From Candidatus Saccharimonadota bacterium (GTDB lineage: Bacteria > Patescibacteriota > Saccharimonadia > Saccharimonadales > Saccharimonadaceae): 64,000 bases of DNA. A model generated the notes under the pieces. It was not told the origin of the DNA. It ran no database searches and saw only the letters and a list, made by a program, of their open reading frames with translations. Position 1 is the first letter of the stretch, and every line of letters begins with the position of its first letter. The position numbers and the translations under genes are program-made. Where the stretch lies: contig JAFUBT010000003.1 in the NCBI GenBank assembly GCA_017460065.1, positions 7,134 to 71,133 of the forward strand. The letters are read 5' to 3'. This document shows positions 3,937 to 25,513 of this stretch, piece after piece.

Positions 3937-5451
3937 ATGTCTACTGCAAAATGTTACTCTGCTATTCCGCTCGGCTTCACTGGGCGCTCCATCACTGTCG
4001 AATGCGACAGCCTGCATGGTCTGCCCGCATTTAATATCGTCGGCCTGCCCGGCCGCAGCATCGACGAAAGCCGACTTCGCATTCGTTCTGCTATCAAGAA
4101 CTCCGGCTTTCGCTTCCCAGCAGATAGGATCACCGTCAATCTCGCCCCCGCAGACCTTCGCAAGACTGGCACTGGTTTTGACCTACCTATCGCCGTAGAC
4201 ATCCTCGTGTCATCCGGCCAACTCCTCCAACGCGACCTCGAGCAGCGTGCCTTCATTGGCGAATTATCCCTCAACGGAGGCATTAAAGCCACGCATGGCA
4301 TCATCAACGCCATCGAAGCCCTATCCAGCAAAATGCTCCGCGAAATCTATATTCCTGTCGACAATGCCGCCGAGGCCGCACTCATTGCCGACCAACACAC
4401 TATTATTCCCGTACAATCGCTCCGCCAACTCTGACTACATCTGAAGCAAATTCACCCCATTTTACCCCTGAGCAAAAATGTCAAAAATACACAAACAGAT
4501 AACCATAAGCGTCTTCTACTAGATCATATATCTGGTCAGCACGAAGCTAAGCGCGCCATTATCATCGCAGTCGCCGGCCGCCACAACATCCTTCTACATG
4601 GCCCACCCGGCGTTGGCAAAACCATGCTCGCCCAGGCCGCCCGCGACCTTCTTCCGCCCGTCAGCCACGACGAAAGCATCGCTATCACCAAGCTTCGTTC
4701 TCTTAGCTCCCCCAACCTCGCACCCGCCAGTCAGCGCCCTTTTCGCAGCCCACATCATAGCTCAACTCTTAGTAATCTGATCGGCAGCAAACTCAGTCTC
4801 CTCCCGGGCGAAATATCTCTGGCCCACCACGGCGTCCTCTTCCTCGACGAATTCCCCGAATTCTCCAGCCAGGCCATCGAAGCTCTCCGCACTCCACTTG
4901 AGACCAAACAAATCACTCTCTGCCACGCGAACACTAAAATTACCTACCCCGCTGATTTTATACTCATTGCCGCTATGAATCCCTGTCCTTGCGGCTACCA
5001 CAACACCGGCGTGCGCAGCTGTAATTGCACGCCTCACCAACTCTACAAATACCAAAAGAAACTTTCCGGGCCCATCCTCGACCGTATAGATATGACCGTT
5101 CAACTACAAGCCATCGACGCCTCTGTTTTATTAAAAACCACAACGAATAGCACTCGCCAAGATGCTAGTGCTAAAACCGCCATCGCCCGCGCCTACCACG
5201 CCCAAACTCAGCGCTACCACTCCCCCGCCATCACAAACGCCGCGCTTAATTCTGTCAGCGTCTGCGAACGACTCAAACTCAGTCCTAGTGCTCGCCAATT
5301 ACTCAATGAGGCCAGCGCAAAACTCCAACTCTCCGCTCGTGCCTACTTCCAAACTATCAAAATCGCCCAAACTATCGCCGACCTCGATGCTGTGCCTATT
5401 ATCGATGCACCCCAAATCGCCGAAGCTCTTCGTTACCGCCGTCCATTCTAA
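3937..5451 (+). CDS. comM: ComM/YifB Mg-chelatase-like AAA+ competence protein; one reading frame interrupted by a single in-frame TGA at 4432-4434 (pseudogene or readthrough)
   Basis: The N-terminal Lon-like domain (MSTAKCYSAIPLGFTGRSITVE...) runs to the TGA. The same frame continues LHLKQIHP...HISGQHEAKRAIIIAVAGRHNILLHGPPGVGKTMLAQ (Walker A) and joins ORF 4624..5451. The ORF-track start at 3763 overlaps tmRNA and is rejected. Confidence 0.8.
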
Positions 5452-5454
5452 CTA

Positions 5455-5579
5455 TGCTGCAAAAACATAACGGAGCCTGCTGGCAAGTTCAAGATGCGGC
5501 TCGCACGTGAAAGGTATCGACGCCAAGGTAATGCTTAGGCATAAAACATAACGGAGGTTACGACCGAGTTCCAGACGAA
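5455..5579 (+). repeat. two truncated or diverged copies of the TAACGGAGCC-core palindromic element
   Basis: TAACGGAGCCTGCTGGCAAGTTCAAGATGCGGCTCGCACGTGAA at about 5468, then TAACGGAGGTTACGACCGAGTTCCAGACGAAGC at about 5548. The partner of the second copy, GCTTCGCCCC, resumes after 5695. Confidence 0.6.
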
Positions 5580-5695
5580 GCTCAAGCATACTATACTACG
5601 AAACGTAACGGAGCCTGCTGGCGAGTTCAAGATGCGACTCGCCCGTGAAGACGGGCCGAGACGACATCGTGTTTCGTAGCATAGTATGCTTGAGC
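5580..5695 (+). repeat. complete palindromic element, copy A (25-nt arms plus 66-nt conserved core)
   Basis: Arms gctcaagcatactatactacgaaac (5580-5604) and gtttcgtagcatagtatgcttgagc (5671-5695). Core GTAACGGAGCCTGCTGGCGAGTTCAAGATGCGACTCGCCCGTGAAGACGGGCCGAGACGACATCGT. Confidence 0.75.
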
Positions 5696-5705
5696 GCTTC
5701 GCCCC

Positions 5706-5734
5706 TTGTCATCCCGCCCCACTTCTGCTATAAT
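5706..5734 (+). promoter_or_regulatory. infC operon promoter (extended -10)
   Basis: TTGTCA (5706-5711), 17-nt spacer, TGc TATAAT (5726-5734). Confidence 0.55.
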
Positions 5735-5771
5735 TACCCCATAAACAAGTCTAATTTTAAGGAGCACAGCC

Positions 5772-6287
5772 ATCAGTAACCACAATTCGCGCACTCGCAT
5801 CAACGGAGAAATTCGTCATCCCGAGGTCCGCGTAATCAGTGCTGACGGTGCGCAACTTGGCATTATGTCTAGCCGCGACGCCCAACTCATGGCTCGCGAC
5901 GCCGGTTTAGACCTGGTCGAGATTTCGCCAAACGCCAATCCGCCAGTAGTCAAAATCATCGACTGGGGTAAATACCAGTACCAAAAGATGAAGGAGCTCA
6001 GCCGCGCCAAGAAAAATGCCAAAAGCAGCGAGCTCAAACAGATTAGGCTTGGTTTGAAAATTGGGGAAAATGACCTCAATATTAAATGCCGCAAAATCCT
6101 CGAACTCCTCGAAGGTGGCGATCGTGTCAAAGTGATGATTATCTTCCGTGGCCGCGAAATGGCCCACAAAGAAATCGGCACCGAACTCATGAACAAAATC
6201 GTCGAAAAGCTCGGCGACCAAGTCATCGTCGACGGCAAATCGCAGATGAGCGGCCGCAATCTTATCTTTACGGTTCGCCATAAATAG
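5772..6287 (+). CDS. infC: translation initiation factor IF-3, probable non-AUG (ATC) start
   Basis: The frame is open from the stop at 5742 and encodes ISNHNSRTRINGEIRHPEVRVISADGAQLGIM upstream of the ORF-track ATG at 5865. AAGGAG (5759-5764) lies 7 nt before ATC at 5772. The rest is typical IF-3 sequence. Confidence 0.8.
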   Translation: MSNHNSRTRINGEIRHPEVRVISADGAQLGIMSSRDAQLMARDAGLDLVEISPNANPPVVKIIDWGKYQYQKMKELSRAKKNAKSSELKQIRLGLKIGENDLNIKCRKILELLEGGDRVKVMIIFRGREMAHKEIGTELMNKIVEKLGDQVIVDGKSQMSGRNLIFTVRHK

Positions 6288-6367
6288 ATAAGCATTGCCC
6301 CAACGCCCACCGGTTCCCTACACCCCAAAGCGTTGCAATTATTAACTAAAGTAGGAAAGGTATCGAA

Positions 6368-6562
6368 ATGCCAAAACTCAAGACCCACAAGGGCACTGCG
6401 AAGCGCGTCAAAATTACCACCAATGGTAAAATCGTCCGCGAACGTGCCTTCGGCAACCACATTCTTGCCAAAAAGTCCAAAGCCCGCAAGCGCAACATCA
6501 AAACTCCTGCGGTCGTTAAGGGCAAAATTGCCAAAAACATTAAAACTGCACTAGGAGCCTAA
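6368..6562 (+). CDS. rpmI: 50S ribosomal protein L35
   Basis: [22 protein letters not shown]..., 64 aa, between infC and rplT. Confidence 0.95.
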
Positions 6563-6564
6563 TC

Positions 6565-6978
6565 ATGAGAGTCAAACGAGGAGTTGCCGCCCGCGCAAAA
6601 CACAAGAAAATTCTAAAAGCCGCCAAAGGCATGCAGCACTATCGCACCCGCAGCTATCGCATGGCCAAGCAAGGCGTCATCAAGTCCCTCAGCTACGCCT
6701 ACCGCGATCGCCGCAACCGCAAACGCGACCTGCGCAGCCTCTGGATCACCCGCATCAACAATGCGGCCCATGAAAACGGCTTAAACTACAGCACTTTCAT
6801 CAACGGTCTCAAGGCCAAAGACATCGAACTTGACCGCAAAGTTCTCGCCGAACTCGCTGTCAACGACCCCAAGGCCTTTGCCGCCATCTGTGAAAGCGTC
6901 AAAGCAAAACCAGCTACTAAGGCCGACACCAAGAGCGCCAAAGCTCCGGCCAAGGCCAAAGCCGCTGCAAAAGCCTAA
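6565..6978 (+). CDS. rplT: 50S ribosomal protein L20 with Lys/Ala-rich C-terminal extension
   Basis: [22 protein letters not shown]... with tail [23 protein letters not shown]. Confidence 0.95.
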
Positions 6979-7011
6979 GCTTAAGCTGTTTCAGTAATTT
7001 TTACAACAAAA

Positions 7012-7036
7012 AGCACCGCTCCACGCGGTGTTTTTT
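7012..7036 (+). terminator. intrinsic terminator after rplT
   Basis: Stem caccgc/gcggtg (7014-7030) followed by TTTTTT. Confidence 0.7.
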
Positions 7037-7063
7037 GTACCCCTCTCGTGCAGCGAAAGAGAT

Positions 7064-7342
7064 GCAGAAAAGGCTACATAGCTTATTCTTAAAACGTAAC
7101 GGAGCCTGCTGGTATAGTAAAAAGCTAGTATTAACTTTTTTGGAATATAACGGAGCCAAAAAACAGAGACGCAGAAAAGGCTACATAGCTTATTTTTTAA
7201 ACGTAACGGAGCCTGCTGGTATAGTAAAAAGCTAGTATTAACTTTTTTGGAATATAACGGAGCTCACGAGCGAGTTCCAGCAGGCGTTCGCCCGTAACGA
7301 CGGGCCGAACGAACTGCGTATTCCAAAAAAATTAATACTAGC
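7064..7342 (+). repeat. nested and tandem array of the TAACGGAGCC element (107-bp period, 2 units) ending in a complete copy C
   Basis: Unit gcagaaaaggctacatagcttatt..aaacgTAACGGAGCCTGCTGGtatagtaaaaagctagtattaacttttttggaataTAACGGAGC occurs at 7064 and again at 7171. The final copy has arms ctagtattaacttttttggaata and tattccaaaaaaattaatactag around core TAACGGAGCTCACGAGCGAGTTCCAGCAGGCGTTCGCCCGTAACGACGGGCCGAACGAACTGCG. Confidence 0.75.
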
Positions 7343-7347
7343 CTAAC

Positions 7348-7688
7348 AAGCTCATCAATAAGCCGGGTTCTGTACCCCAAAGGGGCAGTAGCCATCTATC
7401 TAGCCTCGCGATTGCTCACGAGATCTAGCGGTGAGCGACCATCCGCGGATCACGGTATCTAGGTCTCCTTGCAGCCAATAGAGTTTACCTCACGCCAATG
7501 TCACCATCAGCGCCTGTGAGCTCTTACCCCACTCTTTTCACCCTTACCACGACCGAAATCATGGCGGTTTAGTTTCTGTGGCACTTTTCCTACCCTTACG
7601 GGCGGTTGCCGTTAGCAACTATCGTATCCTGTGCTGCCCGGACTTTCCTCTCGCTATTTTTCAAGCCAGCGGCTACTTCGATGAGCTT
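7348..7688 (-). ncRNA. rnpB: RNase P RNA, bacterial type A
   Basis: Minus strand contains GAGGAAAGTCCGGGC, ACAGAAA, GGGTGAAA, GTAAGAGC and ACAGAACCCGGCTTA. P1 is formed by AAGCTCATC (5') and GATGAGCTT (3'). Confidence 0.9.
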
Positions 7689-7744
7689 GACAACATCATA
7701 ACACAAAACCCCTCAATTAGCAATCCGCCTATGCTAAGTGCTAA

Positions 7745-8644
7745 CTACCACTCTGCCCGCTGCGTGTGCAGGTCGATTATCTTATTAACTTCAGCATCCG
7801 CCTCGGTATTCTTACTACGCGGTACATGCGTAAAGCTGAACGAATCAAGATTTTCCAGCAACTTTAGCACATCGCTATACACCTGCATCAGATCTTTATT
7901 CTTCACTTGGTACACCCCGTTCAGCTGATTCACCATCATCAGACTGTCGCTCATAAAGTTCACCTTCTTGTAGCCCAGTTCGATTGCCTGCTCTAACCCC
8001 TCTTTCAGGCCATAATACTCTGCTAACCGGCTATTCGACATCCCCAGAAATTCTCCGCCCCGCTTAATTTCCTTGCCGTCCGCATCTAAAATATAATACC
8101 CAACCCCGCTCGGCCCAGGGTTGCCCCGGCTACCGCCATCGGTGTAAACCGTAATCACTCCACTCGCAGTCAGATTGCCGCCTTCACTCTCCTGGCCAAA
8201 ATTCGCCATCCGCTCAGCCAGCTTCGGTCGGTTTGCCTTATTTTGGATAATCTGCAATACCATCCCCGACGCTTCATCGAGTCGCAATTCGTTCACCCGT
8301 TCGACCTCTTGCCAACTATAGGCAACGTGACGCTCATTCGTCAGCTTTATCTCGGCCTGCGCATCAAAATTCACTCGAAACACCACGAACAAATTCGCCA
8401 AAGCCGAAGCCGATTCGAGATTCGTAAAGGTCACGACATCTTCCAGCATTAACTCTTGCGCTTGCACCGCTAGATTCTCGTAAATAATCCGCGCCATCGC
8501 TTCATCCGGCTGTTCGCCGAATACAATCTTCCCTGTCGGCAACTCATAATTATCCATACCAACCACGCGCCCCGCCGCGCGTTTCAAGAGCAACACTTTA
8601 CCCTCGTGCTCACAGATTGCCGTCACCCGAATCCGCTGTTTCAT
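7745..8644 (-). CDS. two-domain protein: N-terminal Nudix-like domain fused to C-terminal RNase HI
   Basis: C-terminal half VITVYTDGGSRGNPGPSGVGYYI...AEYYGLKEGL...HVPRSKNTEADAEVN is RNase H-like. N-terminal GKIVFGEQPDEAMARIIYENLAV resembles a degenerate Nudix box. Confidence 0.7.
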   Translation of the reverse strand: MKQRIRVTAICEHEGKVLLLKRAAGRVVGMDNYELPTGKIVFGEQPDEAMARIIYENLAVQAQELMLEDVVTFTNLESASALANLFVVFRVNFDAQAEIKLTNERHVAYSWQEVERVNELRLDEASGMVLQIIQNKANRPKLAERMANFGQESEGGNLTASGVITVYTDGGSRGNPGPSGVGYYILDADGKEIKRGGEFLGMSNSRLAEYYGLKEGLEQAIELGYKKVNFMSDSLMMVNQLNGVYQVKNKDLMQVYSDVLKLLENLDSFSFTHVPRSKNTEADAEVNKIIDLHTQRAEW

Positions 8645-8680
8645 TACCTTGAATTATACCATAAGCGTAAACCGCAAAAA

Positions 8681-8810
8681 ATCCTAAGTGAGTGCGTTTT
8701 CCCGTGATAAGAACACGGTGGGTAAACTCGCTTGCTCTAGAACCACGGTCCTAAAACCTTGAATTCCCATAAACATGATTATTCAGGAAAATCATGTGCT
8801 CACTTAGGAT
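8681..8810. repeat. 12-bp perfect inverted repeat enclosing ~106 nt in an intergenic region
   Basis: atcctaagtgag (8681-8692) and ctcacttaggat (8799-8810). Internal hairpins ccgtg/cacgg and catgatt/aatcatg. Confidence 0.5.
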
Positions 8811-8845
8811 ACTTCTATTATACCATAATTGCCAAAGCGCCAAAT

Positions 8846-9475
8846 CTAGGCGACGCCGACCAATGCATAGAAAAAATGCAATATCCCCTCTGTCGCTGCG
8901 CTCATATAATTACTGAATAACCCTCCACCTAGCAGTAATAAGGCATAAATCACAATCACCCCATAGCGCTCCATCGTCCGCATCACCCCACGAATCGACT
9001 CCGGCGCCAAGGCGTACAATATCCTCGAGCCATCTAGCGGTGGAATCGGCAATATATTAAATAGACAGAACCCCAGATTCACCATAATCGCCGTCAGCAA
9101 GAAAGTCCCCACCATCCCTGTTGCCTGCGTCCAATACAACAACAAAAATGCCCCTAAGGCCAGCACGAAATTCGTCAGCGGCCCCATCAGCGCCACCAAG
9201 GCAAAGCCCCATTCGCCACCCCGCACCTTTCGGGTGTCAATCGGTACCGGTTTTGCCCCACCAAAGACTGGCATTCCCGCCAACGCAAGCATCAGCGGCA
9301 CCAGTACCGTCATAACTGGATCAATGTGTCGTAGAGGATTTAGTGACAGCCGCCCATCGTTCTTTGCGGTATCGTCCCCCAACTTATAGGCCGTAAAACC
9401 ATGCGCTAATTCATGCAGTACCATCGAAAATACCACAATCACGAACACGAAAATAAGGTAATAGATTTTATCCAT
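8846..9475 (-). CDS. site-2 protease family (M50) membrane metalloprotease
   Basis: HELAHG motif in the first TM helix, multiple TM segments, PLDGSRIL motif. Confidence 0.8.
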   Translation of the reverse strand: MDKIYYLIFVFVIVVFSMVLHELAHGFTAYKLGDDTAKNDGRLSLNPLRHIDPVMTVLVPLMLALAGMPVFGGAKPVPIDTRKVRGGEWGFALVALMGPLTNFVLALGAFLLLYWTQATGMVGTFLLTAIMVNLGFCLFNILPIPPLDGSRILYALAPESIRGVMRTMERYGVIVIYALLLLGGGLFSNYMSAATEGILHFFYALVGVA

Positions 9476-9505
9476 TACCTTATTATAGCACCTACTAAAA
9501 GTGTC

Positions 9506-9697
9506 TTATTTAATCAAACCTTTTTTACGGAGCGTGCGCAAAGCAGAGGTTGAAACATTCAACTTAACCTTACGGCCATCAACCACTACGGTACGCTTTT
9601 GGATGTTTGGCTTAAAAACCTTGCGAGTCTTGTGCTGCGAAAAACTCACATTGTGGCCATACATCTTGCCTTTACCGGTAATTTCACATACTGCCAT
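9506..9697 (-). CDS. rpmB: 50S ribosomal protein L28
   Basis: MAVCEITGKGKMYGHNVSFSQHKTRKVFKPNIQK... Confidence 0.9.
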   Translation of the reverse strand: MAVCEITGKGKMYGHNVSFSQHKTRKVFKPNIQKRTVVVDGRKVKLNVSTSALRTLRKKGLIK

Positions 9698-9780
9698 ATC
9701 TATTATTCTCTATTATTTTCTTAAAACTGCGTTCTATTATATCTTATAATCCCTGTTTTTGCAAGGCTCAGCCGCAGCGT

Positions 9781-10230
9781 CTAGTCCAGCTTCCAGACTT
9801 CGAGCGCCGGCGGCAAAGCCGAGGCGTTCTTAATGCGCAGCTTCTTCTCTAGCTTCACGCCTGCCTTTATCTCTGCAAAGTCCATGTTGCCCATTGGGAT
9901 AACAATCTTCGGCTCGACGATCGACACAATTTTCGCATTCGCCGTTCCCAAGATATCAATCGGCCCCAATTCGTCCAGCTCTTCCGTCTTGACGCCGTCG
10001 CCCACCAAACCAATCTTGATACCGTCGATATCAATCCGATACATCACGCCCCCCTCTTTGGTGTCCTTAGCGCTAATCACAATATCGCCAATTTCATACT
10101 CACCTGCACCGACCAAATCCCCTACCGGTAAGGCTGCATCCACCCTTGATTGTGCGACATTAATATTTACGAGCTTTTCCTTAGCCCGAATCACCATTTC
10201 ATCAGAATTTTTCAGCTCTATTTCAAACAT
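9781..10230 (-). CDS. hypothetical protein
   Basis: 149-aa ORF with a strong upstream GGAGAGGAG RBS. No domain recognised. Confidence 0.5.
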   Translation of the reverse strand: MFEIELKNSDEMVIRAKEKLVNINVAQSRVDAALPVGDLVGAGEYEIGDIVISAKDTKEGGVMYRIDIDGIKIGLVGDGVKTEELDELGPIDILGTANAKIVSIVEPKIVIPMGNMDFAEIKAGVKLEKKLRIKNASALPPALEVWKLD

Positions 10231-10250
10231 TCTCTACTCCTCTCCACCAA

Positions 10251-10853: not shown

Positions 10854-10891
10854 CCTACTTCAATTTTAACACAAAACAGAATAAATAATTT

Positions 10892-11677: not shown

Positions 11678-11689
11678 TATCTCGGTATC

Positions 11690-12250: not shown

Positions 12251-12261
12251 TTACCCCCCCA

Positions 12262-12459
12262 CTAAGCGGCTGCCACGAATGGCATTAAGGCCAAATGCCG
12301 TGCTCGCTTGACGGCTACGGCTAGTTGGCGCTGTTGCTTGGCGGATAGGCCAGTTTTGGCAATTGGCTCAATCCGGCCATAGGCATCAACATAACGCTGT
12401 AGAGTCTTTACGTCGCGATAGTCAAAATACATGTTTGGATCATTTTTATAACGTTTCAT
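12262..12459 (-). CDS. rpsR: 30S ribosomal protein S18
   Basis: [22 protein letters not shown]...[26 protein letters not shown]. Confidence 0.9.
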
Positions 12460-13415: not shown

Positions 13416-14711
13416 TTACAGGACGAATAATTTCTCGCGGAAATTATCGTCCCAAATTAGACCCTGGTTCTCCCAAGGCAAATCTGCGGGTTTCAAGCTA
13501 AACTGCCCCGACAGGGCCGTTAGCTGGTCTTCTGGCAAAGACAATCCGCAAGCCAACCAAGCAGGCTTTTCAAAATCCTGCACGAGAGTATAACCAGCAT
13601 AATACTGACACTCTTTCGTGAAGGCATAACCGTAGGGATTGCCACCATCACGACAGCCCTGCATTACGCGCAATGCCAACCCCCAAGCCGTCTCTAGCGG
13701 ATTGCGCAGGTCGCCAGCGTCATAACGTATGCTTTTGTCCGCCCACTGGGCGATTTCACCAAAACTCTTGCCCTGCAGGGCCTGATCGGCCATGATTGTC
13801 AAACGCGCTGCATCACGTAATGTTGGCACTTCGCCGAGAAAATACTCCTCAAGCTCTGCGTCAGAAGTCAAAGCGCGACCTCTCGATACGACGCCATCCG
13901 ATGACGGCATGCCGTGCAACACTGTCCGCGCATTCTCCGCATCCAGTATCCGGCATTCTACCACGCGCCCTATCGCACGCAGCAGCTCAACGCCGTTGAC
14001 GCTACGTGTCGCGGGAATCATGATTTTTCCTGGCTTCGCTTCTGTCGCGAAGCGTGCCACGCTAATCGCTCGCGCCCACTCGCTCTTGCTCACTACATAA
14101 GCGTCAGCCAAGCCATACTGCCGTAAGGCCCATTCAAGGCACATCTGCACTTGCGGCGCCTCTAGTCGCAGGTTAAGCAAAGCCTCTGCTTCCATGCACG
14201 GCGATTCGTAACGCAACGATTCCGCCCGCAGCCATGCTTCTAGCTCGGCCGCCCGCCCATGTGACGGTCGACCAAAACTCACTATCGCCGCTTCGCGTAG
14301 CGCCGCCGAATCACCTTCTGTGAACAACCGCAAAAACGCCAAGCTATTCAGCTTGTCCTTAATGCACTGCTGCACCAAATGTCGCAACACTCCCTCTTCG
14401 GCGTGCTGCGCTGGTGGCATTGCGCGTAGTTCTGCCTGTAATTCACTGAGTGCCCGTTCTTTCCACATCTGGATCGAAACGGTACTCTCATCGTACACAA
14501 ACATCGGCTCAGAAAACTTATTGCGCTTCGCCAGGTACAGCCAGCGCCGCTTTACTTCATCGACGTTGGTTGGTTGCAAAGCGCACGCCATCATCACTTC
14601 GATCTCCGCCAGCTTCTTGATTAACTTATCTAGCTGCGGATTATTTACTTTAGCCATCCCTTTGACAAAATCTCTTGCCAAAAAAATCACCCCTTTCAAA
14701 GTACTAGCCAC
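13416..14711 (-). CDS. DUF1704/MATCAP-like protein, paralog lacking the HExxH motif
   Basis: Shares blocks with ORF 20047..21285 (GYAFTKECQYYAGYT versus GYAFTKDWAYFGGYY). The metal-site position reads IGRVVECR instead of IGHEIECH. The start could be internal MAKVNNPQ. Confidence 0.5.
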   Translation of the reverse strand: MASTLKGVIFLARDFVKGMAKVNNPQLDKLIKKLAEIEVMMACALQPTNVDEVKRRWLYLAKRNKFSEPMFVYDESTVSIQMWKERALSELQAELRAMPPAQHAEEGVLRHLVQQCIKDKLNSLAFLRLFTEGDSAALREAAIVSFGRPSHGRAAELEAWLRAESLRYESPCMEAEALLNLRLEAPQVQMCLEWALRQYGLADAYVVSKSEWARAISVARFATEAKPGKIMIPATRSVNGVELLRAIGRVVECRILDAENARTVLHGMPSSDGVVSRGRALTSDAELEEYFLGEVPTLRDAARLTIMADQALQGKSFGEIAQWADKSIRYDAGDLRNPLETAWGLALRVMQGCRDGGNPYGYAFTKECQYYAGYTLVQDFEKPAWLACGLSLPEDQLTALSGQFSLKPADLPWENQGLIWDDNFREKLFVL

Positions 14712-17560: not shown

Positions 17561-17732
17561 TCCTTTTTACTTATGTTTATTTTACCGCACTCGCTGCAAA
17601 GCGCCAACACATTCGCGTCCGCAGACTGAGCCTTTTTGGTCAGGAATCCTGACCAAAAAGGTCTATAGCAAAAAACAGACACTAAGAACGCATCAAATCA
17701 AAGTACCGTTCGTATACATAGTTACGCAACAG

Positions 17733-18119
17733 CTACGTAACCGTGCCCCTCCCATCTTCCTCGGCTCGAGCTTTCTGTACCAGCCAGCCATACTGAACCG
17801 GCTTTTGTATCTGCAGGCCATACCGTCTCGCCCTAATCACATGATATTGCGCATCCACCGCCGACACAAAATTCCGCGCCTTATCGTTATAAACATGTCG
17901 CGCAATCGTCACCACAGTTTTCAAATCATAACACTTGACACATCGTTGTCGGTGAAATTCCAGGACTCCCCGCAATCGCAAACGACGGCACTGTCAGCGT
18001 CCAATCGTCATCTGGCCCAAATGATAATACAAATTACTCTTAGAAATACCTAACAACTCGCAAATCTCACGCACCGTAAAATAAGTATTCTGCTGCAACA
18101 AATCTACGCGAACGACCAT
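17733..18119 (-). CDS. small HTH-domain protein (possible transposase remnant) interrupted by in-frame TGA at 17994-17996
   Basis: Own translation from ATG at 18117-18119: MVVRVDLLQQNTYFTVREICELLGISKSNLYYHLGQMTIGR*QCRRLRLRGVLEF..., continuing in frame into ORF 17733..17981. Confidence 0.4.
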
Positions 18120-18125
18120 GACCTT

Positions 18126-19880
18126 CTATAGCCTCCGCAAATATTCCGCCAAATCCCCCAAGGCCACCGTCTCTTCTTTCTCGCACAGACGCACGCTTAC
18201 CGTCCCCGCCTCAGCATCCTTCGGCCCCACAATCAACACACAAGGAATCTTCATTTTTGTAGCCTCACGAATCTTCTTACCCAGACTCTCATTGCGCTCA
18301 TCAACAAAATATCGCAATTTATTATGCTCAATCGGCTCCGACAGCTCCATCCCATCCAAAACCGCCTGAATCTGCGCCACATATTCGCCAACTGAATCGT
18401 TGATCGTCAAAATCCGCACCTGCTCCGGCGCGCACCAAAACGGGAACCAGCCCGCCGTATGCTCAATAAACACACTCAGAAAACGCTCCACCGAGCCAAT
18501 CAACGCACAGTGAATCATAATCGGTGTCTTTTTCGAGCCATCCTCGGCTACGTACTCTAAGCCAAACCGCGCCGGCATCGCATAATCCAACTGCACCGTC
18601 GCTAACTGCCATTCACGCCCCAGAGCATCCACGGCCATAAAGTCCATCTTTGGTCCATACATCGCCGCCTCACCCTCGCCGACGTAGTAATCCATCTCAA
18701 ACTTCTCGGCCATCGCCTGAATCGAGTTTTGCGCCTTTTTCCACATCTCTGGCGTGCCAATATAACCATCGCCATCATCACGGAAAGACAGGCGCAACTT
18801 CAACTGCATGTCAACTCGTGCGTACAAATCTTTCGCCGACTCAATTAGCTCGCCGAAAATCTCGCCCACCTGCTCCTCGGTACAAAACACATGCGAATCG
18901 TCCTGCGTGATTGCCCTTACTCGCGACAAGCCACCCAGCTCTCCCTTGCGTTCATCACGATACACCGTCGTCGTCTCAAGAAACTTCACCGGCAATTCTT
19001 TGTACGAACGAGGTACGCTAGCAAAAATCTGGCTGTGATGCGGACAATTCACCGGTTTGAGCGCCAATTCGTCGCCCGATTCGGCGCTCGTAAAACGTAA
19101 CATTTCCGGGAATTTCTCCAAATGCCCCGAAGTTTTATACAAATCTGTGCTCGCAATGTGCGGGATGCAAACCTTCTGGTAACCACAACGCTCGCGATAG
19201 CTATTCGCCAAAGCCGCCACCATATCACGCAGCACCGTCCCACGTGGCGTAAAGAGCGGCAAGCCCGCCCCCACTAAATCCGAAAAACAGAACAGCCCCA
19301 GCTCTTTGCCAAGTTTACGATGGTCGCGCCGTCGTGCTTCTTCCTGTCGCGCTTCATAATCTGCCAGCTCTTCCTGCGTAGCAAAGGCCAAACCATAAAT
19401 CCGCGTCAACATCTCGCGCTTTTCGTCGCCCTTCCAGTAGGCACCCGCAATGCGTTCGAGCTTAAACACGCCGACTTCACCCGTATTCTCAACATGCGGA
19501 CCACGGCACAAATCTTCAAAATCCCCCAAAGTATAGAAAGAAATCACTTCGTCTTCGGGTAGCTCTTCGATTAGCTCCATCTTGTAACTCTGCCCGCCAT
19601 CCTTTGCCCACTGCAAAGCCTCTGCCCGCGTTTTCTCGCTGCGCACAATTGGCAACTTCTGCGCAATTATTTTGCGCATTTCTTTCTCGATTTTCTTTAA
19701 ATCGGCCTCGACGACCTTCGCTCCGCCGAAATCAATATCATAGTAGAAACCATTATCAATGGCCGGGCCAATCCCAAACTTGATTGTTGTGCTGTCAGTA
19801 TAAAGATTTTTTACCGCCGCCGCCATGATATGGCTGAGGGAATGGCGCATTTTCTCTAAATATGATTCATCTGACATCAC
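18126..19880 (-). CDS. thrS: threonine--tRNA ligase (short form without N-terminal TGS domain)
   Basis: 584 aa with class II motifs, for example FRDE-like RDERKGELGGLSRVRAITQDDSHVFC, and a C-terminal anticodon-binding domain. The start is GTG at 19880 or ATG at 19877. Confidence 0.9.
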   Translation of the reverse strand: MMSDESYLEKMRHSLSHIMAAAVKNLYTDSTTIKFGIGPAIDNGFYYDIDFGGAKVVEADLKKIEKEMRKIIAQKLPIVRSEKTRAEALQWAKDGGQSYKMELIEELPEDEVISFYTLGDFEDLCRGPHVENTGEVGVFKLERIAGAYWKGDEKREMLTRIYGLAFATQEELADYEARQEEARRRDHRKLGKELGLFCFSDLVGAGLPLFTPRGTVLRDMVAALANSYRERCGYQKVCIPHIASTDLYKTSGHLEKFPEMLRFTSAESGDELALKPVNCPHHSQIFASVPRSYKELPVKFLETTTVYRDERKGELGGLSRVRAITQDDSHVFCTEEQVGEIFGELIESAKDLYARVDMQLKLRLSFRDDGDGYIGTPEMWKKAQNSIQAMAEKFEMDYYVGEGEAAMYGPKMDFMAVDALGREWQLATVQLDYAMPARFGLEYVAEDGSKKTPIMIHCALIGSVERFLSVFIEHTAGWFPFWCAPEQVRILTINDSVGEYVAQIQAVLDGMELSEPIEHNKLRYFVDERNESLGKKIREATKMKIPCVLIVGPKDAEAGTVSVRLCEKEETVALGDLAEYLRRL

Positions 19881-19957
19881 TGCCCTTTCTTAATTACTAA
19901 TTAACTCTGTTATTTTACCATATTCACCGGTATTTTCCATTCCGCCACTCTCCTCTA

Positions 19958-19986
19958 TTGCAAAAATCAATAAAATGTGCTATAAT
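19958..19986 (+). promoter_or_regulatory. promoter of the DUF1704 gene (extended -10)
   Basis: TTGCAA (19958-19963), 17-nt spacer, TGc TATAAT (19978-19986). A ~55-nt leader follows with hairpin gttccg/cggaac, then an AGGAG RBS. Confidence 0.55.
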
Positions 19987-20046
19987 AACGAGAAGTCCAA
20001 CGTTCCGTACGGAGCGGAACTAGTCCCTTAGGAGTGTGATGTTTTT

Positions 20047-21285
20047 ATGAAGGAAACCTTGGGCAGAATCGCCAAAATCGCGATGCGCCTCAACCCCGTT
20101 GAACTGGTCACCCCAGTCAACGAGCGCGACATGCGCGAGAGTTTTCTCAATGCATACGAAGGCGGCATTAAACTACCACCCTACTTCATCTATGATTCGC
20201 GAGCTCTCAATGATGCCACCAAACGCGGGCGAGAATTAGTAGATCTGTACAACAAGTTCCTAATCCTATCGAAAGATTGTCCGGCCACACGGTTTGAGCC
20301 ACGGCAAGAACGCGCCGTCCAAGGCCTCATTTACCGCAGAATCCATGAGGCCCTGCAAACCTACCAGATGGCAGTCGCCCTCCAAGCCAGCGACGACTCC
20401 ACCCTCTCCCGTATGGTCCAAGCAAAATATGGCGAGCCAGACGGCCGTCTTATCGCTATGGCCTACGACCTGACAGATTGGCCCACGAAAAAACGTGCCA
20501 GTACTATCGACGATAGCATCGTCGCACTACTGCGCTCCTTGCACTTTGATGCTGAGAATATTGCTTACTTTTTCCGTAAGGCTCTCAACATCTACGGTAT
20601 CAAGGGGTGGAATGTTAGCCTCGACGACGAAGTCTGCGCAATTGACGTCCGCGACAAAAACCGCGGTGGCCGCCCCATGGTCGTCATTCCCAGCAACCGC
20701 CGAGTTGACGGATTGAAGCTCCTCGAGCTCATTGGTCACGAAATCGAGTGCCATCTGCGCTGCACCGAAAACTCGCGTCACTTCTGGCGTGAGATTCTCT
20801 GTGATGAGTATCAGCCCCTGGTCCCGCTGCTCGCCAAAAGCGATGACGCATTCCTCTATGAGGGGTGCGCCAAACGCAACGACGTGATGGTCAGCGGCAG
20901 CAGCGCAATGCCGTCGCCTTATTACGTCATCGCGATCGATCGTGCCTTGCGAGGCTATTCGTTCATCGATACCTTTGAAGTTATCGCTGGCCTACAGCTC
21001 ATGCGAGACATACCGCGCGAAACCGCCTACTCACGTGCTTGGGTTATTACCCGCCGCATCTATCGCGGCATCAGTAACCCCATTCACGGCGGCTATGCTT
21101 TCACGAAAGACTGGGCGTATTTTGGCGGTTACTACAACAGCAACGCCGCCAATCGACTCGCCAATGATTTCTCAAGCATGACCACTCGCGACATCGCCGA
21201 ATTGCACGGCGCTGGTATCCGCTTTACGACCACCCACGAGCATCTCAAGCTCTGCCTGGATCCGTGGCAACTCGGCATCATCTAA
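20047..21285 (+). CDS. DUF1704/MATCAP-like putative metallocarboxypeptidase (HExxH intact)
   Basis: LIGHEIECHLRC (HExxH) and GGYAFTKDWAYFGGYY. The family assignment is from memory of DUF1704-like sequences, not a search. Confidence 0.5.
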   Translation: MKETLGRIAKIAMRLNPVELVTPVNERDMRESFLNAYEGGIKLPPYFIYDSRALNDATKRGRELVDLYNKFLILSKDCPATRFEPRQERAVQGLIYRRIHEALQTYQMAVALQASDDSTLSRMVQAKYGEPDGRLIAMAYDLTDWPTKKRASTIDDSIVALLRSLHFDAENIAYFFRKALNIYGIKGWNVSLDDEVCAIDVRDKNRGGRPMVVIPSNRRVDGLKLLELIGHEIECHLRCTENSRHFWREILCDEYQPLVPLLAKSDDAFLYEGCAKRNDVMVSGSSAMPSPYYVIAIDRALRGYSFIDTFEVIAGLQLMRDIPRETAYSRAWVITRRIYRGISNPIHGGYAFTKDWAYFGGYYNSNAANRLANDFSSMTTRDIAELHGAGIRFTTTHEHLKLCLDPWQLGII

Positions 21286-21300
21286 CCACTCCAACTCATA

Positions 21301-21330
21301 CCGCCAGCCCACTCGGACTGGCGGTTTTCT
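21301..21330 (+). terminator. intrinsic terminator
   Basis: ccgccag/ctggcgg stem followed by TTTTCTCTT. Confidence 0.65.
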
Positions 21331-21381
21331 CTTGTCCATGCTACAATTACAAAGCAACTTTACCTCACGGCATCAATATTT

Positions 21382-21458
21382 GGGTCGCTAGCTCAGTTGG
21401 CTAGAGCGCCTCGTTTACACCGAGGAGGTCGGGGGTTCGAGCCCCTCGCGACCCACCA
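21382..21458 (+). tRNA. tRNA-Val(TAC), CCA encoded
   Basis: GGGTCGC acceptor, anticodon loop TTTACAC, T-arm GGGGGTTCGAGCCCC, ending GCGACCCACCA. Confidence 0.9.
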
Positions 21459-21639
21459 GAGAAACTAGAAATACCCAATACAGCCCGCTACTCCGCATAT
21501 GTGCGAGGAGGGGCGAGAACCCAAAGGTTCGTGCGAGCAAGGAGCCGAAGCAAGCAAAAATGCTTGCATTTTTATTTGTGAGGCGACGCCGCGAACCAAG
21601 GCTCCGTCAGGAGCCGCTGCCCCTCGCGACCCACCAGAG
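21441..21639 (+). repeat. 21-bp direct repeat of the tRNA-Val 3' end flanking a 157-bp palindromic insert (att-like scar)
   Basis: gcccctcgcgacccaccagag occurs at 21441-21461 and again at 21619-21639. The segment between folds as a long imperfect palindrome centred on gcaagcaaaaatgcttgc. Confidence 0.6.
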
Positions 21640-21668
21640 GATTATGAATACCCCGCGGGGTATTTTTT

Positions 21669-22133
21669 CTATGTCATTACTACGTAACTTACGTATTCTC
21701 TCCCCAACCAATCTTCCACCTTGCAGCGCTTGCGAATTTCCTCACAGCTAATTTTATTAAATCCCAGCTCAAGCCCCACCCCGAGCATCTTCGCGTAAGC
21801 CTCTTTCAGTACCCACGCTTCTAGCAAATCCTCACTTTCCTCCGGAGTCAAAATCCGCCGCCGCATACGTTCATTAATCGGCCGTCGTAACTGCAAATCA
21901 AAACCCACCGCCTCACGCGCCATCGCGACCCCCCAATACGGACCCGAATGACTGATGCTAAAATGCCAGCCACTTACTGGCTGCGGCTTACCATACTCGT
22001 CGCGCGGAATTTTCGTATAGTCCACCTCCACGCCAAACTCTTCCCGAAACACCCGCGCCAACATCTCTGCCGACCGCCGCTGCGCCCCATCGCCAATCTT
22101 ATAGACAAAAACTCGAGCAGTTCCATCTTTCAT
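21669..22133 (-). CDS. 4'-phosphopantetheinyl transferase (Sfp-type)
   Basis: GKPQPVSGWHFSISHSGPYWGVAMA, VGFDLQ, WVLKEAYAKMLGVGL. The start could be 22160 or 22133. Confidence 0.7.
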   Translation of the reverse strand: MKDGTARVFVYKIGDGAQRRSAEMLARVFREEFGVEVDYTKIPRDEYGKPQPVSGWHFSISHSGPYWGVAMAREAVGFDLQLRRPINERMRRRILTPEESEDLLEAWVLKEAYAKMLGVGLELGFNKISCEEIRKRCKVEDWLGREYVSYVVMT

Positions 22134-22164
22134 ACCCTCTATTATAAATAGAGAGCACAAAAAA

Positions 22165-22240
22165 TGGAGCCGCGACCGGGATTTGAACCCGGGACCTCAT
22201 CCTTACCATGGATGCGCTCTACCAACTGAGCTATCGCGGC
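22165..22240 (-). tRNA. tRNA-Thr(GGT), CCA encoded
   Basis: Minus strand GCCGCGATAGCTCAGTTGGTAGAGCGCATCCATGGTAAGGATGAGGTCCCGGGTTCAAATCCCGGTCGCGGCTCCA. Confidence 0.9.
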
Positions 22241-22302
22241 ACTGCGATCATTCTATCATATCTGAAGACGAAAAGAAATAGCCGCCTCACGTCAGACTCC
22301 GC

Positions 22303-22308
22303 TATAAT
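22303..22308 (+). promoter_or_regulatory. -10 box placed for a leaderless transcript of the GT39 gene
   Basis: TATAAT at 22303-22308. ATG at 22316 is 7 nt downstream, with no room for an RBS. Confidence 0.45.
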
Positions 22309-22315
22309 AATAAAC

Positions 22316-23770
22316 ATGAAGCGCGATACACCCAAAAAACCATTCAGTATCATCTCTTATCTTGCACCGCTCGGCTCTGCTTTAATTTTTACAATCTTGT
22401 CCTGCCTCAATCTTCGCACTGCCATGTGGTTTGATGAATCGTACTCCGCCTATCTCGTTCGTGGCGATTTCGGCCAAATCTGGCAAATGACCGCTCTCGA
22501 CGTTCATCCGCCTTTCTATTACTTCTGCCTCAAAGTCTGGTCTCTTCTCTTCGGCAATAGCGATTTCGCTCTTCGCTCCATGAGCGTTTTCTTCGGCGGT
22601 CTAGCAATCATCCTTACTTTCTTCCTTCTCCGTCGCTGGTTCGGCGAAAAAGCCGCCGCCATCTCTACCCTCGCACTCAGCATTGCGCCAATCTTTGTCC
22701 GCTACAGCCAAGAAATGCGCATGTATGCTCTAGTTTTCGCTATTATCATTGGCGCCACCCTTGTCCTCGACATTGCGCTCAAATCCAAACGCAAAGTCGC
22801 CTGGTGCGCTTACGCCCTCCTCGTTTGTCTTGGCATGTGGACACATTATTTCTCCGCCCTCGCTTGGCTCGCCCAACTTGGATACATTATTTACTACTTC
22901 CGTCAGCATGGTCGTCAGAATAGCATTTTCTGGGTTTACCCGCTCGCCGTCCTGCTCTATTTGCCTTGGCTGCCATCGTTCTTCTCGCAAGTGAAATCCG
23001 TCCAAAGCGGCTTCTGGATTCCCCCCGTCGACCTCAGTACGCCACTCAGCTTCTTTTCCGAAAGCCTCGTCCAGAGCAACGCCGCCGATACACAATCTTG
23101 GCTCGCCCTTCTCGTCTGCGCCCTAATTTGGCTCAGCGCCTACCTGCTGCACCGCCATACCCCTAAAGCAGCTCGCGGTAAATTCGGCTTTCTTCTCGCA
23201 ATGACTTTTGTACCACCCATCCTCCTCATGCTGCTTTCTCTACCGCCGCTCAAACCAACCTACGTTACCCGTTATGTTGTATACTCAGCCAGCCTACTTT
23301 GGGCCATCATCGGCTTGGCCGCATATTGGACCTGGCGCTACGGCAAAAAAGCCCTCGCCGTCGCCTTCGCCGTTCTTGCACTTATCTCAGCCAGCATCGG
23401 GCTTTACTCTGTCACCACTCGTCAAAATAACGAAGATGTTCGTGGCCTAGTTGCGGTCTTGCAGGCTCACGAAGCTGCCCCTATTCTCGTTCACGTCGAC
23501 GCCATGAGCTACTACGACTTCTTCTTCTACGAGAGCGCCGAACGGCCAATTTACGGCATCGATGTCGACTTTGTCTGGAATTCACTCGAGCCCATCCGTC
23601 AATATTCGCAAAATTATCTCAGCGACCTCGATTCCTACATTGTTCAGCAAGATCGCTTTTGGCTCGTTCTACCCAACGACGCCGCCGCCGATTATGCCTT
23701 TGCCGGTTTTCGCCCCAGTGACAGCATTATTACCGACCACTACACCGCCACTGCTTATCAAAAGCTTTAG
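22316..23770 (+). CDS. GT39/ArnT-like (PMT_2) membrane glycosyltransferase
   Basis: About 12 TM helices, with N-terminal loop MWFDESYSAYLVRGDFGQIWQMTALDVHPPFYY typical of the ArnT/PMT family. The ORF-track start at 22208 overlaps tRNA-Thr and is rejected. Confidence 0.65.
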   Translation: MKRDTPKKPFSIISYLAPLGSALIFTILSCLNLRTAMWFDESYSAYLVRGDFGQIWQMTALDVHPPFYYFCLKVWSLLFGNSDFALRSMSVFFGGLAIILTFFLLRRWFGEKAAAISTLALSIAPIFVRYSQEMRMYALVFAIIIGATLVLDIALKSKRKVAWCAYALLVCLGMWTHYFSALAWLAQLGYIIYYFRQHGRQNSIFWVYPLAVLLYLPWLPSFFSQVKSVQSGFWIPPVDLSTPLSFFSESLVQSNAADTQSWLALLVCALIWLSAYLLHRHTPKAARGKFGFLLAMTFVPPILLMLLSLPPLKPTYVTRYVVYSASLLWAIIGLAAYWTWRYGKKALAVAFAVLALISASIGLYSVTTRQNNEDVRGLVAVLQAHEAAPILVHVDAMSYYDFFFYESAERPIYGIDVDFVWNSLEPIRQYSQNYLSDLDSYIVQQDRFWLVLPNDAAADYAFAGFRPSDSIITDHYTATAYQKL

Positions 23771-23824
23771 CGCCAAGAAAAATCCCCGCATTACTCCTGC
23801 GGGGATTTGGCATAATCGCTTGGA

Positions 23825-24307
23825 TTATGCCAGTTCTTGGAAATAGTACCATTCGGCGTGCTCGTCTGCCGTCTCGCCCAAAACCGACAATAGTCGCATC
23901 AACTGCGTTGCGGCAATGTAGCCTCCGAGCTCTTCGCTCCAAAAATGCGCACCGCATCGATCGGCCGGAATATGGCAGTTAAAGGGTAGCCGCTGCTGCA
24001 TGCCATAATGCCGCTCTATTGTAATCGATAGCGACAATAGCGGACCATAAGTCCATTCCTCCATCGGTGCCGCGACCAACATTAACTCGAACTCGTTGTC
24101 CCACAGCTCAAAGCTAGCTGCGATACCGCTCTGCATGGCATGTTCGCCATCCCAGCCAAAGAAGCACAACAAGTCTTCGAAATGCAGTTCCCAGCCGCCT
24201 TCGGGTAGCCGTTCTACGAAGCCCATTTGCACCGCAAATTGCACCGCATCACTAACTTGACCGGCACAATTTCGCCATGCGAAAGCTCCCATTCGGAACA
24301 CCTCCAT
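23825..24307 (-). CDS. hypothetical acidic Trp-rich cytoplasmic protein
   Basis: 160-aa ORF with no recognisable motif. Confidence 0.4.
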   Translation of the reverse strand: MEVFRMGAFAWRNCAGQVSDAVQFAVQMGFVERLPEGGWELHFEDLLCFFGWDGEHAMQSGIAASFELWDNEFELMLVAAPMEEWTYGPLLSLSITIERHYGMQQRLPFNCHIPADRCGAHFWSEELGGYIAATQLMRLLSVLGETADEHAEWYYFQELA

Positions 24308-24392
24308 TCCATATGTTTTTCTAAAGTACCTAATTACTATGCTTACCCTATCATCATAACATCAAAAAGTGCTATAATCTAATTATCCATTT

Positions 24393-24468
24393 GGGGTGTT
24401 AGCTCAGTTGGTAGAGCGATTGGTTCGCAATCAATAGGTCAGGAGTTCGAATCTCCTACACTCCACCA
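24393..24468 (+). tRNA. tRNA-Ala(CGC), CCA encoded
   Basis: GGGGTGT acceptor with G3:U70, anticodon loop TTCGCAA. Preceded by TGc TATAAT at 24370-24378. Confidence 0.9.
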
Positions 24469-24507
24469 TATTTCCCGTCAGTTTGTCGGGGCTTTTTTAT
24501 GTGCCAA

Positions 24508-25203
24508 TTATTCAACCAGCATCTCTACTAACAGTACGTCTCGATATAATCGTGCATTCACATCACAAGTCGACAGCATCAATAGCTTTCCGCCAACATG
24601 TTCGTCTCGCCAATTCGTCGCCTGTTGTCGTAGCCGTGCAAGCACATAGTTATTCTTAGCCCGTAAAAAACTATCCACACGGTACAGTTCATCTGTTGCA
24701 TCAATCACGACATACGCCAACACTCGCAGTCGGACTTGCCGCCGTCTTATCGTCAACTCACCACTATCATGCTCTGCAAAATACTCCTCATCGGCAAAGC
24801 GACTAATGTCTCCGAACATCCGATGACCATCCATCCGGTGTCCATAAATCACTGCAAAATCATCGCTAAAATCTCGCGCATTCCGATAATCCAAAAAGAT
24901 ACTTCCCGCCGTCGCATATTCATCCCGATAATTGTGCCGCAAGTAATAGTTGTTGTCCGCCGCTTGCATAATCGGCTGGTTAATCTGCGTCTCATCAAAT
25001 TTAATCCAGCCCACTAAGTTTGCGCTGGCCGCCGCATCCGCCAAGACCACTTCCGCCTGCGCCTCGTCCGCAAACACCGGTGCGCTCTGCATCACCTGCC
25101 GCGCATCCCACAAGGCATAACCACCCAAAGCCAACATTCAGACCACGATGGACCACATTATCGTTCGTAAAATCACCTCCACCCACCGCAAGCATCTATT
25201 CAT
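24508..25203 (-). CDS. srtB: class B-like sortase; N-terminal membrane anchor interrupted by in-frame TGA at 25138-25140
   Basis: GWIKFDETQINQPIMQAADNNYYLRHNY, GSIFLDYRN, VIYGHRMDGHRMF and LMLSTCD (TLxTC). Own translation from ATG at 25201-25203 gives MNRCLRWVEVILRTIMWSIVV*MLALGGYALW, a TM helix spanning the stop. Confidence 0.75.
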
Positions 25204-25513
25204 CAACAATCCCCCTCACTCGCAACAATGCCAGCACGCGCCCTTTTATTTCGCCACCGTTCATTGCAGGCAACTCGTCAATTCGCCAACCGTTTTTGTC
25301 ATACAATATCACGTCGCTGTCGCCATATTGCCGCCATAATCGCTCATATATCACCAAATCGCCATCTCGCAACGTGGGGTTTTCTTCGCCCGTTGCCCGG
25401 TAAAATCCCAACACCTGCGCAAAACACAGTCAGCCCAACATCAGCAAACAGCCAATTCGCACCAAACACCCAATCTCGAGCCTATCCCGCCACCGTTTTG
25501 TAATTTTCAGCAT
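25196..25513 (-). CDS. SipA/LepA-like signal-peptidase-I homolog lacking the catalytic Ser; in-frame TGA at 25430-25432
   Basis: Own translation from ATG at 25511-25513: MLKITKRWRDRLEIGCLVRIGCLLMLG*LCFAQVLGFYRATGEENPTLRDGDLVIYERL... The S26 box GxSMxPTLxxGD appears here as GEENPTLRDGD. Confidence 0.55.

Follow-up and report, generated by a model that had tools for sequence, protein, structure and literature searches.

The stretch analysed here, referred to below as the window, comprises 64,000 nucleotides (nt) of contig JAFUBT010000003.1 (assembly GCA_017460065.1, positions 7,134 to 71,133 of the forward strand), and it derives from a rumen bacterium of the class Saccharimonadia (Saccharibacteria). 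Four of its genes, encoding the ComM ATPase, a small helix-turn-helix (HTH) protein, a class B sortase and a SipA-like pilus accessory protein, each carry exactly one in-frame TGA and no other stop (Table 1). The G+C content of the window is about 50%, its GC skew is strong and uniform (-0.16 to -0.31 in 4-kb windows), and the minus strand carries most of its genes, which include 10 tRNA genes and those for tmRNA and RNase P RNA. A GC skew of 0.23-0.36 was recorded in the relatives L002, L005 and L007.

A scan with the threonyl-tRNA synthetase (ThrRS) gene, taking one genome per species, assigned the window to uncultured Saccharibacteria, and its best relatives were metagenome-assembled genomes (MAGs) from sheep rumen and from gut. 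ThrRS identity to the window was 86% for L001, 83% for L002 (RGIG6922), 70-75% for L003-L005 and 64% for L007 (a Nanosyncoccaceae MAG). Two further contigs were found through an exact match to ribosomal protein L20: L081, from a rumen assembly in ENA, belongs to the same genome (99.96-100% identical), and L082, which comes from another sample, represents a second strain of the species (98-99% identity). All sequences compared were metagenome assemblies. An all-against-all BLAST of open reading frames (ORFs) delimited by TAA or TAG returned many false in-frame TGAs, which stemmed from ORFs in the wrong frame, overlaps with tRNAs and sequence ahead of start codons; these were discarded on inspection, and only cases with cross-species support were retained. 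A self-trained codon-usage score was dropped because it was dominated by the GC skew and favoured the antisense frames of plus-strand genes.

Genes interrupted by a single TGA

The sortase gene begins at an upstream ATG (25203) preceded by a GAGGGGG Shine-Dalgarno sequence, and a sortase made without the part upstream of the TGA would be left with half a membrane anchor. L087 and L088 (83% amino acid identity) share the TGA at this codon, and the surrounding sequence there reads ...IMWSVVA[TGA]MLALGG.... Comparison of the window sortase with that of L087 gave 0.106 nonsynonymous (dN) and 1.08 synonymous (dS) substitutions per site (dN/dS≈0.1), and for the 21 codons upstream of the TGA the corresponding proportions were pN 0.145 versus pS 0.81. 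Because both sides are conserved while synonymous sites neared saturation, the parts upstream and downstream of the TGA have been maintained together as a single reading frame that includes the TGA. In the databases (NCBI, ENA and Logan) the downstream part appears as a "class B sortase" of 209 amino acids (aa). Homologues with more than 50% identity are likewise truncated at the N terminus there, because the DNA of these relatives carries an in-frame TGA, and more distant homologues are full length. A scan of JGI metagenomes with the sortase returned only 3 homologues, all distant. Termination at the TGA with a restart of translation at the ATG behind it was considered and rejected, since the TGAs of other lineages are not followed by a start codon and the product would retain half an anchor.

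Five further lineages carry one TGA each in the sortase gene at other positions, and in four of the five it stands where relatives have Trp. The sequence MNNLLH[TGA]LEV of L092-L095 corresponds to LRW in L087 and in the window (W7), and VIE[TGA]FLG of L089-L091 and L100 corresponds to VEW in P0134. In L002 (VVA[TGA]LTI) and L101 (IIG[TGA]ISI) the TGA falls in the GW motif, whose W is present in 29 of 29 homologues listed, and in L007 it lies at a motif position matching that of L092-L095. Six sortase lineages thus have exactly one TGA each, at five different positions (codons 6/7, 10 and 22 and, twice, about codon 70).

The SipA-like gene lies between a pilin gene and the sortase gene, an order shared with L089, L092 and L102. 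Its orthologues are uninterrupted; the nearest of them, in L092, has W at the TGA site (LLVAFWLCFGW), and that of L089 has Y. The neighbouring pilin/adhesin genes have orthologues in L002, L007, L089 and L092 with DUF7601 and VWA Pfam domains. The pilin gene of L002 has an in-frame TGA of its own just past the signal peptide (AGT TGA ATA, L002 669-671), so that the pilus locus of L002 holds a second interrupted gene beside the sortase.

In comM, the Pfam domains ChlI, Mg_chelatase and Mg_chelatase_C flank the stop on both sides, with the TGA between ChlI and Mg_chelatase. The gene contains no TGG codon anywhere, and the TGA is its sole Trp position. All of the 8 closest ComM homologues (8/8; 51-64% identity) have W at this site, and more distant ones have F or Y. 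The TGA is kept in L082, although the gene differs there at 8 other positions. The mechanically called comM ORF, with its start at 3763, overlaps the tmRNA gene; the true start is 3937. The HTH frame is, judged from its homologues, a real gene, because P0185 (144 aa) and P0188 (228 aa) align over both of its halves; its TGA-C is retained in L096 (95% nt identity).

The preliminary description of this DNA had reported the four interruptions, three of the four TGAs being followed by C, and had seen no gene broken by TAA or TAG. These observations were borne out: the TGAs lie in real genes, the following bases are C, C, A and C in the order of Table 1, and same-frame neighbours in the window that are separated by TAA or TAG proved to be distinct genes by Pfam (miaA/efp, SSB/S6). 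No frameshift was found in any affected gene, and a scan of window ORFs of at least 90 aa that have TGA as the upstream in-frame stop yielded no further case. Beyond what had been described, the feature is common to the whole clade and concentrated in the sortase-pilus locus.

Internal and terminal TGAs across the clade

All 10 internal stops identified in the clade were TGA, with 0 TAA and 0 TAG. From the codon usage of the clade, random nonsense changes would be expected to produce 48% TAG, 30% TAA and 22% TGA. The changes TGG->TAG and TGG->TGA are equally probable, and Gln codons should yield most nonsense changes; the probability of 10/10 TGA under this expectation is 2e-7. The distribution of these codons was also uneven. 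Among codons aligned across species, the pilus-locus genes (sortase, SipA-like and pilins) had 8 TGA versus 64 TGG, whereas the other orthologue-supported genes had 0 TGA versus 405 TGG once artefacts from tRNA overlaps and start-upstream regions had been removed (p=2e-7). Most internal TGAs are proximal to the 5' end (codons 6-42); the exceptions are those near codon 70 in the L002 sortase and at the same GW site in L101, and that at codon 166 in comM.

The base following the TGA (+4) differed between internal and terminal sites. C occupied this position at 6/10 internal TGAs, compared with 26% after in-frame TGG (p=0.025) and 1/14 terminal TGAs (Fisher p=0.009), the terminal ones being mostly followed by U; the bias toward C that had been suspected from the window is therefore real. 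The longer motif TGA-CT(A/G) was present at 5/10 internal sites, compared with 7.7% CT after TGG (p=5e-4).

Among 100 genes with ends fixed by cross-species alignment, the stops were 55 TAA, 37 TAG and 8 TGA. Those 8 TGAs sit exactly at the TAA or TAG of the orthologues, and readthrough would add up to 25, 27 and 99 codons. Because TGA makes up only about 0.02% of the codons inside genes, its presence at homologous gene ends is not a matter of chance. The bPH_2-domain gene ends in TGA both in the window and in L092 (about 81% identity), adjoining or overlapping the downstream start. As described earlier, the bases after the six terminal TGAs of the window are T, T, T, A, G and G (in the order of Table 1), and three of these TGAs (37950, 42984 and 57946) close their genes in ATGA overlaps.

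Terminal TGAs were often accompanied by a second stop. In the window, the distance to the next TAA or TAG is 1-15 codons for all six (probability by chance about 0.007), and in the clade a TAA or TAG followed immediately after 4/14 terminal TGAs versus 5/92 TAA or TAG stops (p=0.017). The sole terminal TGA-C (uvrD of L003) has a back-up stop two codons later. Such sequence patterns are signs that UGA may be a weak stop in this clade. Low use of TGA as a stop was seen in the distant Saccharibacteria loci L040 and L074 as well, and hence was not taken as evidence. TAG is a very common stop, both among the orthologue-supported genes counted above (37/100) and among the larger ORFs of the window, where it is the commonest, which is unusual for bacteria; this heavy use suggests a strong reliance on release factor 1 (RF1).

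Table 1. Positions of the interrupted genes, terminal TGAs and other features, counted from the first nucleotide of the window
Feature	Position	Strand	Basis
comM (YifB/ComM Mg-chelatase-like AAA ATPase), 504 codons, one in-frame TGA	3937..5451	+	Pfam
comM in-frame TGA, codon 166, context CTC TGA CTA	4432..4434	+	
Small HTH protein gene, 128 codons, one in-frame TGA	17733..18119	-	weak HTH Pfam matches, residues 7-37
HTH gene in-frame TGA, codon 42, context CGC TGA CAG	17994..17996	-	
Class B sortase gene, 231 codons, one in-frame TGA	24508..25203	-	Pfam Sortase; NCBI name of downstream part
Sortase in-frame TGA, codon 22, within membrane anchor, context GTC TGA ATG	25138..25140	-	
SipA-like gene (signal-peptidase-like pilus accessory), 105 codons, one in-frame TGA	25196..25513	-	
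SipA-like in-frame TGA, codon 28, context GGC TGA CTG	25430..25432	-	
Two pilin/adhesin genes of the sortase-pilus locus	25565-26695, 26803-28599	-	
Terminal TGA, small membrane-protein gene; next TAA/TAG 7 codons on	1905..1907	-	
Terminal TGA, bPH_2-domain gene; next ATG overlaps adjacent second TGA (GAG TGA TGA AAA)	37950..37952	-	
Terminal TGA, prepilin peptidase gene; TAA in tandem (TGA TAA)	40213..40215	-	
Terminal TGA, pilT; ATGA overlap with pilC start; next TAA/TAG 15 codons on	42984..42986	-	
Terminal TGA, triose-phosphate isomerase gene; ATGA overlap with next gene	57946..57948	+	Pfam TIM, matching L103 gene
Terminal TGA, avd (accessory gene of the diversity-generating retroelement)	61417..61419	-	Pfam bAvd, matching L103 gene
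tmRNA gene	3509-3873	-	
RNase P RNA gene	7343-7689	-	
Diversity-generating retroelement	60162-63486	-	Pfam bAvd, RVT_1 on matching L103 genes
Retroelement part: avd	61417-61848	-	
Retroelement part: reverse transcriptase	60162-61469	-	
Retroelement part: secreted protein, 534 aa	61882-63486	-	

Possible meanings of the internal UGA

These patterns fit neither of two simple roles for UGA. It does not behave as an efficiently decoded synonymous Trp codon, because such a codon would spread over all genes and ignore the next base; nor does it behave as a pure stop codon, because a pure stop is not conserved inside genes under purifying selection. The reading that we regard as probable, based on comparison of sequences, is an ambiguous, early-stage reassignment of UGA from stop to Trp in this Saccharimonadia clade. 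UGA would still serve as a terminator, a rare one that usually has U as the next base and often a TAA or TAG directly behind it, and would also be read as Trp at a useful rate. Because of that rate, TGG->TGA changes could be fixed and maintained inside functional genes, and readthrough would give full-length ComM and HTH protein, a membrane-anchored sortase and a full-length SipA-like protein. Internal UGAs would survive where termination is expected to be weakest, that is with C at +4 and especially in UGA-CUR (R, A or G), and where a lower yield or a short abortive peptide is cheap, as in accessory genes and the first sortase codons. Release factor 2 (RF2) would terminate at UGA, best with U at +4, and the decoder would be a tRNA-Trp, whether in the ordinary CCA form, in a form with a 4-bp anticodon stem or as a UCA copy, so that termination and Trp insertion would both occur in one cell. 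We infer this co-existence of RF2 with Trp decoding from the positions of the stops alone, because neither prfB nor a tRNA-Trp gene occurs in the loci compared.

The residue that homologues have at the internal UGAs is mostly Trp: W stands in the closest comM and SipA homologues and at several sortase sites, and neither Gly nor Cys was found opposite any internal TGA in the homologue alignments. Readthrough of UGA as Trp or an early reassignment, both of which the preliminary description had listed among its explanations, fits this result. If UGA is read as Trp, the expected peptides spanning the former stops are LRQLWLHLK for ComM and IMWSIVVWMLALGGYALWDAR for the sortase.

Several points weigh against an ambiguous reassignment to Trp. 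Three internal sites lie in variable regions and are not opposite W: at codon 22 of the window sortase the residue in more distant homologues is A, V, L or P, orthologues have N, S or V at the L002 pilin site, and the residue aligned to the HTH TGA varies (E or Q) in distant homologues. The L007 sortase TGA is not opposite W in the BLAST alignment, and its surroundings are variable too. A release-factor motif search of the window and the Saccharibacteria loci detected no prfA and no prfB, and tRNA-Trp was absent among the 10 tRNAs of the window and 25 tRNAs of related loci. The short extensions (1-15 codons) past the terminal TGAs of the window are compatible with a complete reassignment with relic stops as well. 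Moreover, the samples are small (10 internal and 14 terminal TGAs in the clade), and several of the statistical tests were framed post hoc, with the data already seen.

A complete reassignment of UGA to Trp (genetic code 4), in which RF2 would have been lost, UGA would be a rare Trp codon and the terminal TGAs would be read through, is unlikely in our view, and the preliminary description had likewise considered wholesale use of code 4 or 25 improbable. It would account for TGA opposite W in homologues, for the back-up stops behind all six terminal TGAs of the window, for the rarity of TGA as a stop (8/100) and for the unusually common TAG, which is expected if RF1 does most of the terminating. 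However, terminal TGAs fall exactly at the TAA or TAG of orthologues, far above the expectation from their frequency as sense codons (0.02%), and some of the extensions produced by readthrough would be as long as 25, 27 and 99 codons. The ATGA stop-start overlap is conserved between species (window and L092), the 405 Trp codons of the non-pilus orthologue-supported genes include no TGA, and the difference in the +4 base between internal and terminal sites is unexpected if no release factor reads UGA.

A bolder form of ambiguous decoding, which we put forward tentatively and consider doubtful, would give UGA a dual meaning set by its neighbours: UGA-U, UGA-A and UGA-G would end genes, UGA-CUR would be Trp, and the 5' UGA of the sortase would be a selected throttle. 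If so, the sortase UGA would couple pilus assembly to the balance between RF2 and tRNA-Trp, and the clade would offer a natural bacterial case of context-dependent dual decoding used for gene regulation.

Selection may also have favoured the early UGAs of the sortase and SipA-like genes as programmed, context-dependent readthrough sites that keep the pilus-assembly enzymes low or condition-dependent, with the comM and HTH cases as by-products of the same leakiness. We judge this quite improbable. The occurrence of exactly one TGA in each of six sortase lineages, the strong enrichment in the pilus locus (p=2e-7), the over-represented TGA-CTR motif and the conservation of the TGA over dS≈1 all speak for such a device. 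The five different positions include no conserved one, and the 70 nt downstream of each UGA fold like shuffled sequences (z -0.71 to +0.68), so that no downstream RNA structure accompanies them. In the related lineage L102 (P0134) the same locus has an uninterrupted sortase, and drift in a low-demand gene gives the same pattern without selection.

Recent pseudogenisation through TGG->TGA nonsense mutations, another of the explanations offered earlier, was rejected as very improbable. In its favour, one transition suffices for such a change, it is accessory genes that are affected, and pseudogenes do accumulate in small host-dependent genomes. Yet a second species retains the sortase TGA at dS≈1.1, and dN/dS is ≈0.1 on either side of it; the affected genes have no frameshift, TAA or TAG; every one of the ten internal stops is TGA, although TAG is just as easily reached from TGG and Gln codons are the main expected source of nonsense changes; and TGAs recur at different Trp codons of the sortase in six lineages.

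Sequencing or assembly errors, or the encoding of selenocysteine or of glycine (code 25), can be set aside with near certainty: the data are metagenome assemblies, but independent ones from different samples and pipelines (ENA, Logan and NCBI) agree on the TGAs, and, although related Patescibacteria (Gracilibacteria and Absconditabacteria) read UGA as Gly (PMC13293708), both alternative amino acids are excluded because no Gly or Cys is aligned and no fold rises above shuffles, with no downstream hairpin and with W, F or Y rather than C in homologues at the comM site.

The diversity-generating retroelement of the window was also considered as a cause and rejected, since it cannot account for TGG->TGA changes in unrelated genes. 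The 534-aa secreted protein encoded next to its avd gene is likely the target of the element. Elsewhere in the window, a repeat of about 75 nt occurs in two copies (5601-5675 and 52777-52851; 97-100% identical) and at corresponding places in L082-L084; it may be a small mobile or regulatory repeat. Near 7101, a difference of about 100 nt in repeat-related sequence separates the window from L081. Two ORFs, at 13416-14711 (minus strand, about 430 aa) and 20047-21285 (plus strand, 412 aa), have no confident Pfam domain, and their translations look alike by eye.

Comparison with known decoding systems

The A1 readthrough protein of phage Qβ is produced at a leaky UGA that is read by tRNA-Trp, and in E. 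coli UGA-C is the weakest context for RF2. The clade studied here resembles such leaky-UGA systems in that Trp would be inserted at UGA, C at +4 favours and U at +4 opposes readthrough, and both outcomes would arise from one codon. U at +4 is part of the extended termination signal (PMC5289835). In the classical cases, however, readthrough gives a minor extended product past the normal end of a gene, whereas here the UGA is internal, readthrough would be needed for function, and the feature is clade-wide.

Recoding of UGA is known in the same phylum. A 2026 review restricts UGA->Gly recoding there to Gracilibacteria/JAEDAM01 (PMC13293708), and the code 25 of Gracilibacteria and Absconditabacteria differs from the present case in that UGA specifies Gly and the change is genome-wide and complete (PMC13293708). 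Saccharibacteria are treated as using code 11 (PMC10746230), and we found no report of UGA->Trp recoding in Saccharimonadia in the literature searched.

Complete code 4 has been described in Mycoplasmatales, Hodgkinia, Nasuia, Zinderia, Stammera, Eggerthellaceae and JAKLIH01. For Eggerthellaceae it was reported together with a 2026 survey that lists UGA->Trp in Bacillota, Pseudomonadota, Verrucomicrobiota and, newly, Actinomycetota (PMC13462651). JAKLIH01 is a family of Patescibacteriota (class Minisyncoccia) in which a 2026 paper in Nucleic Acids Research found UGA->Trp, and the same work shows that UGA can be read by a tRNA-Trp(CCA) whose anticodon stem has 4 bp (PMC13092985). In the portion of its supplementary text available to us, a tRNA-Trp with a 4-bp stem is given for one unrelated Saccharimonadales genome only (PMC13092985). 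The clade shares with these lineages the presence of UGA where homologues have Trp and a host-dependent life with a reduced genome, and it shares its phylum with JAKLIH01. In code 4 lineages, however, UGA is a common Trp codon genome-wide and has ceased to end genes, and prfB has been lost, whereas in this clade internal UGA is very rare (4 in 64 kb), is absent from housekeeping genes and still occurs at homologous stops.

Rare internal UGAs of this kind are easily overlooked. Standard annotation shortens such genes, as with the 209-aa NCBI sortase, or calls them pseudogenes, so that rumen Saccharibacteria are credited with too few pilus, competence and regulatory functions. Methods based on coding density, and probably those of the Codetta type, may miss recoding at so low a frequency.

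To our knowledge, UGA->Trp reassignment has been recognised in a handful of bacterial lineages, almost all of them AT-rich reduced symbionts in which the change is complete, and the ambiguous intermediate that theory requires has been glimpsed essentially in 'Ca. Providencia siddallii' alone. Like the clade described here, that symbiont has a few intact genes with in-frame UGA at Trp sites, some of them conserved, and still uses UGA as a stop. In the leech symbionts PSOF and PSLP, prfB and trnW(CCA) are kept and about 9 genes depend on readthrough of a UGA that stands at a Trp position; some of these codons are retained across species, and PSAC represents an intermediate code 4 (PMC10540940). 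Its authors interpreted these as readthrough-dependent genes at the onset of reassignment.

The two cases differ in several respects. P. siddallii is an AT-rich (22-24% GC) intracellular gammaproteobacterium in which AT pressure explains TGG->TGA, whereas the present clade belongs to the Patescibacteria and has 44-50% GC, so that AT pressure is not an obvious driver at about 50% GC. The affected genes of P. siddallii include essential ones, whereas here they are accessory and concentrated in one pilus locus; and prfB and trnW were examined in P. siddallii, whereas here the co-existence of RF2 with Trp decoding is deduced from stop positions. Because several species of the clade span the state, the order of events (weakening of RF2, change of tRNA-Trp, and spread of UGA from dispensable to essential genes) becomes testable. 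The clade would thus represent a case of the Providencia kind that is new for Saccharimonadia, placing the intermediate state in a different phylum and at about 50% GC, with concentration in a pilus locus and a marked sequence context.

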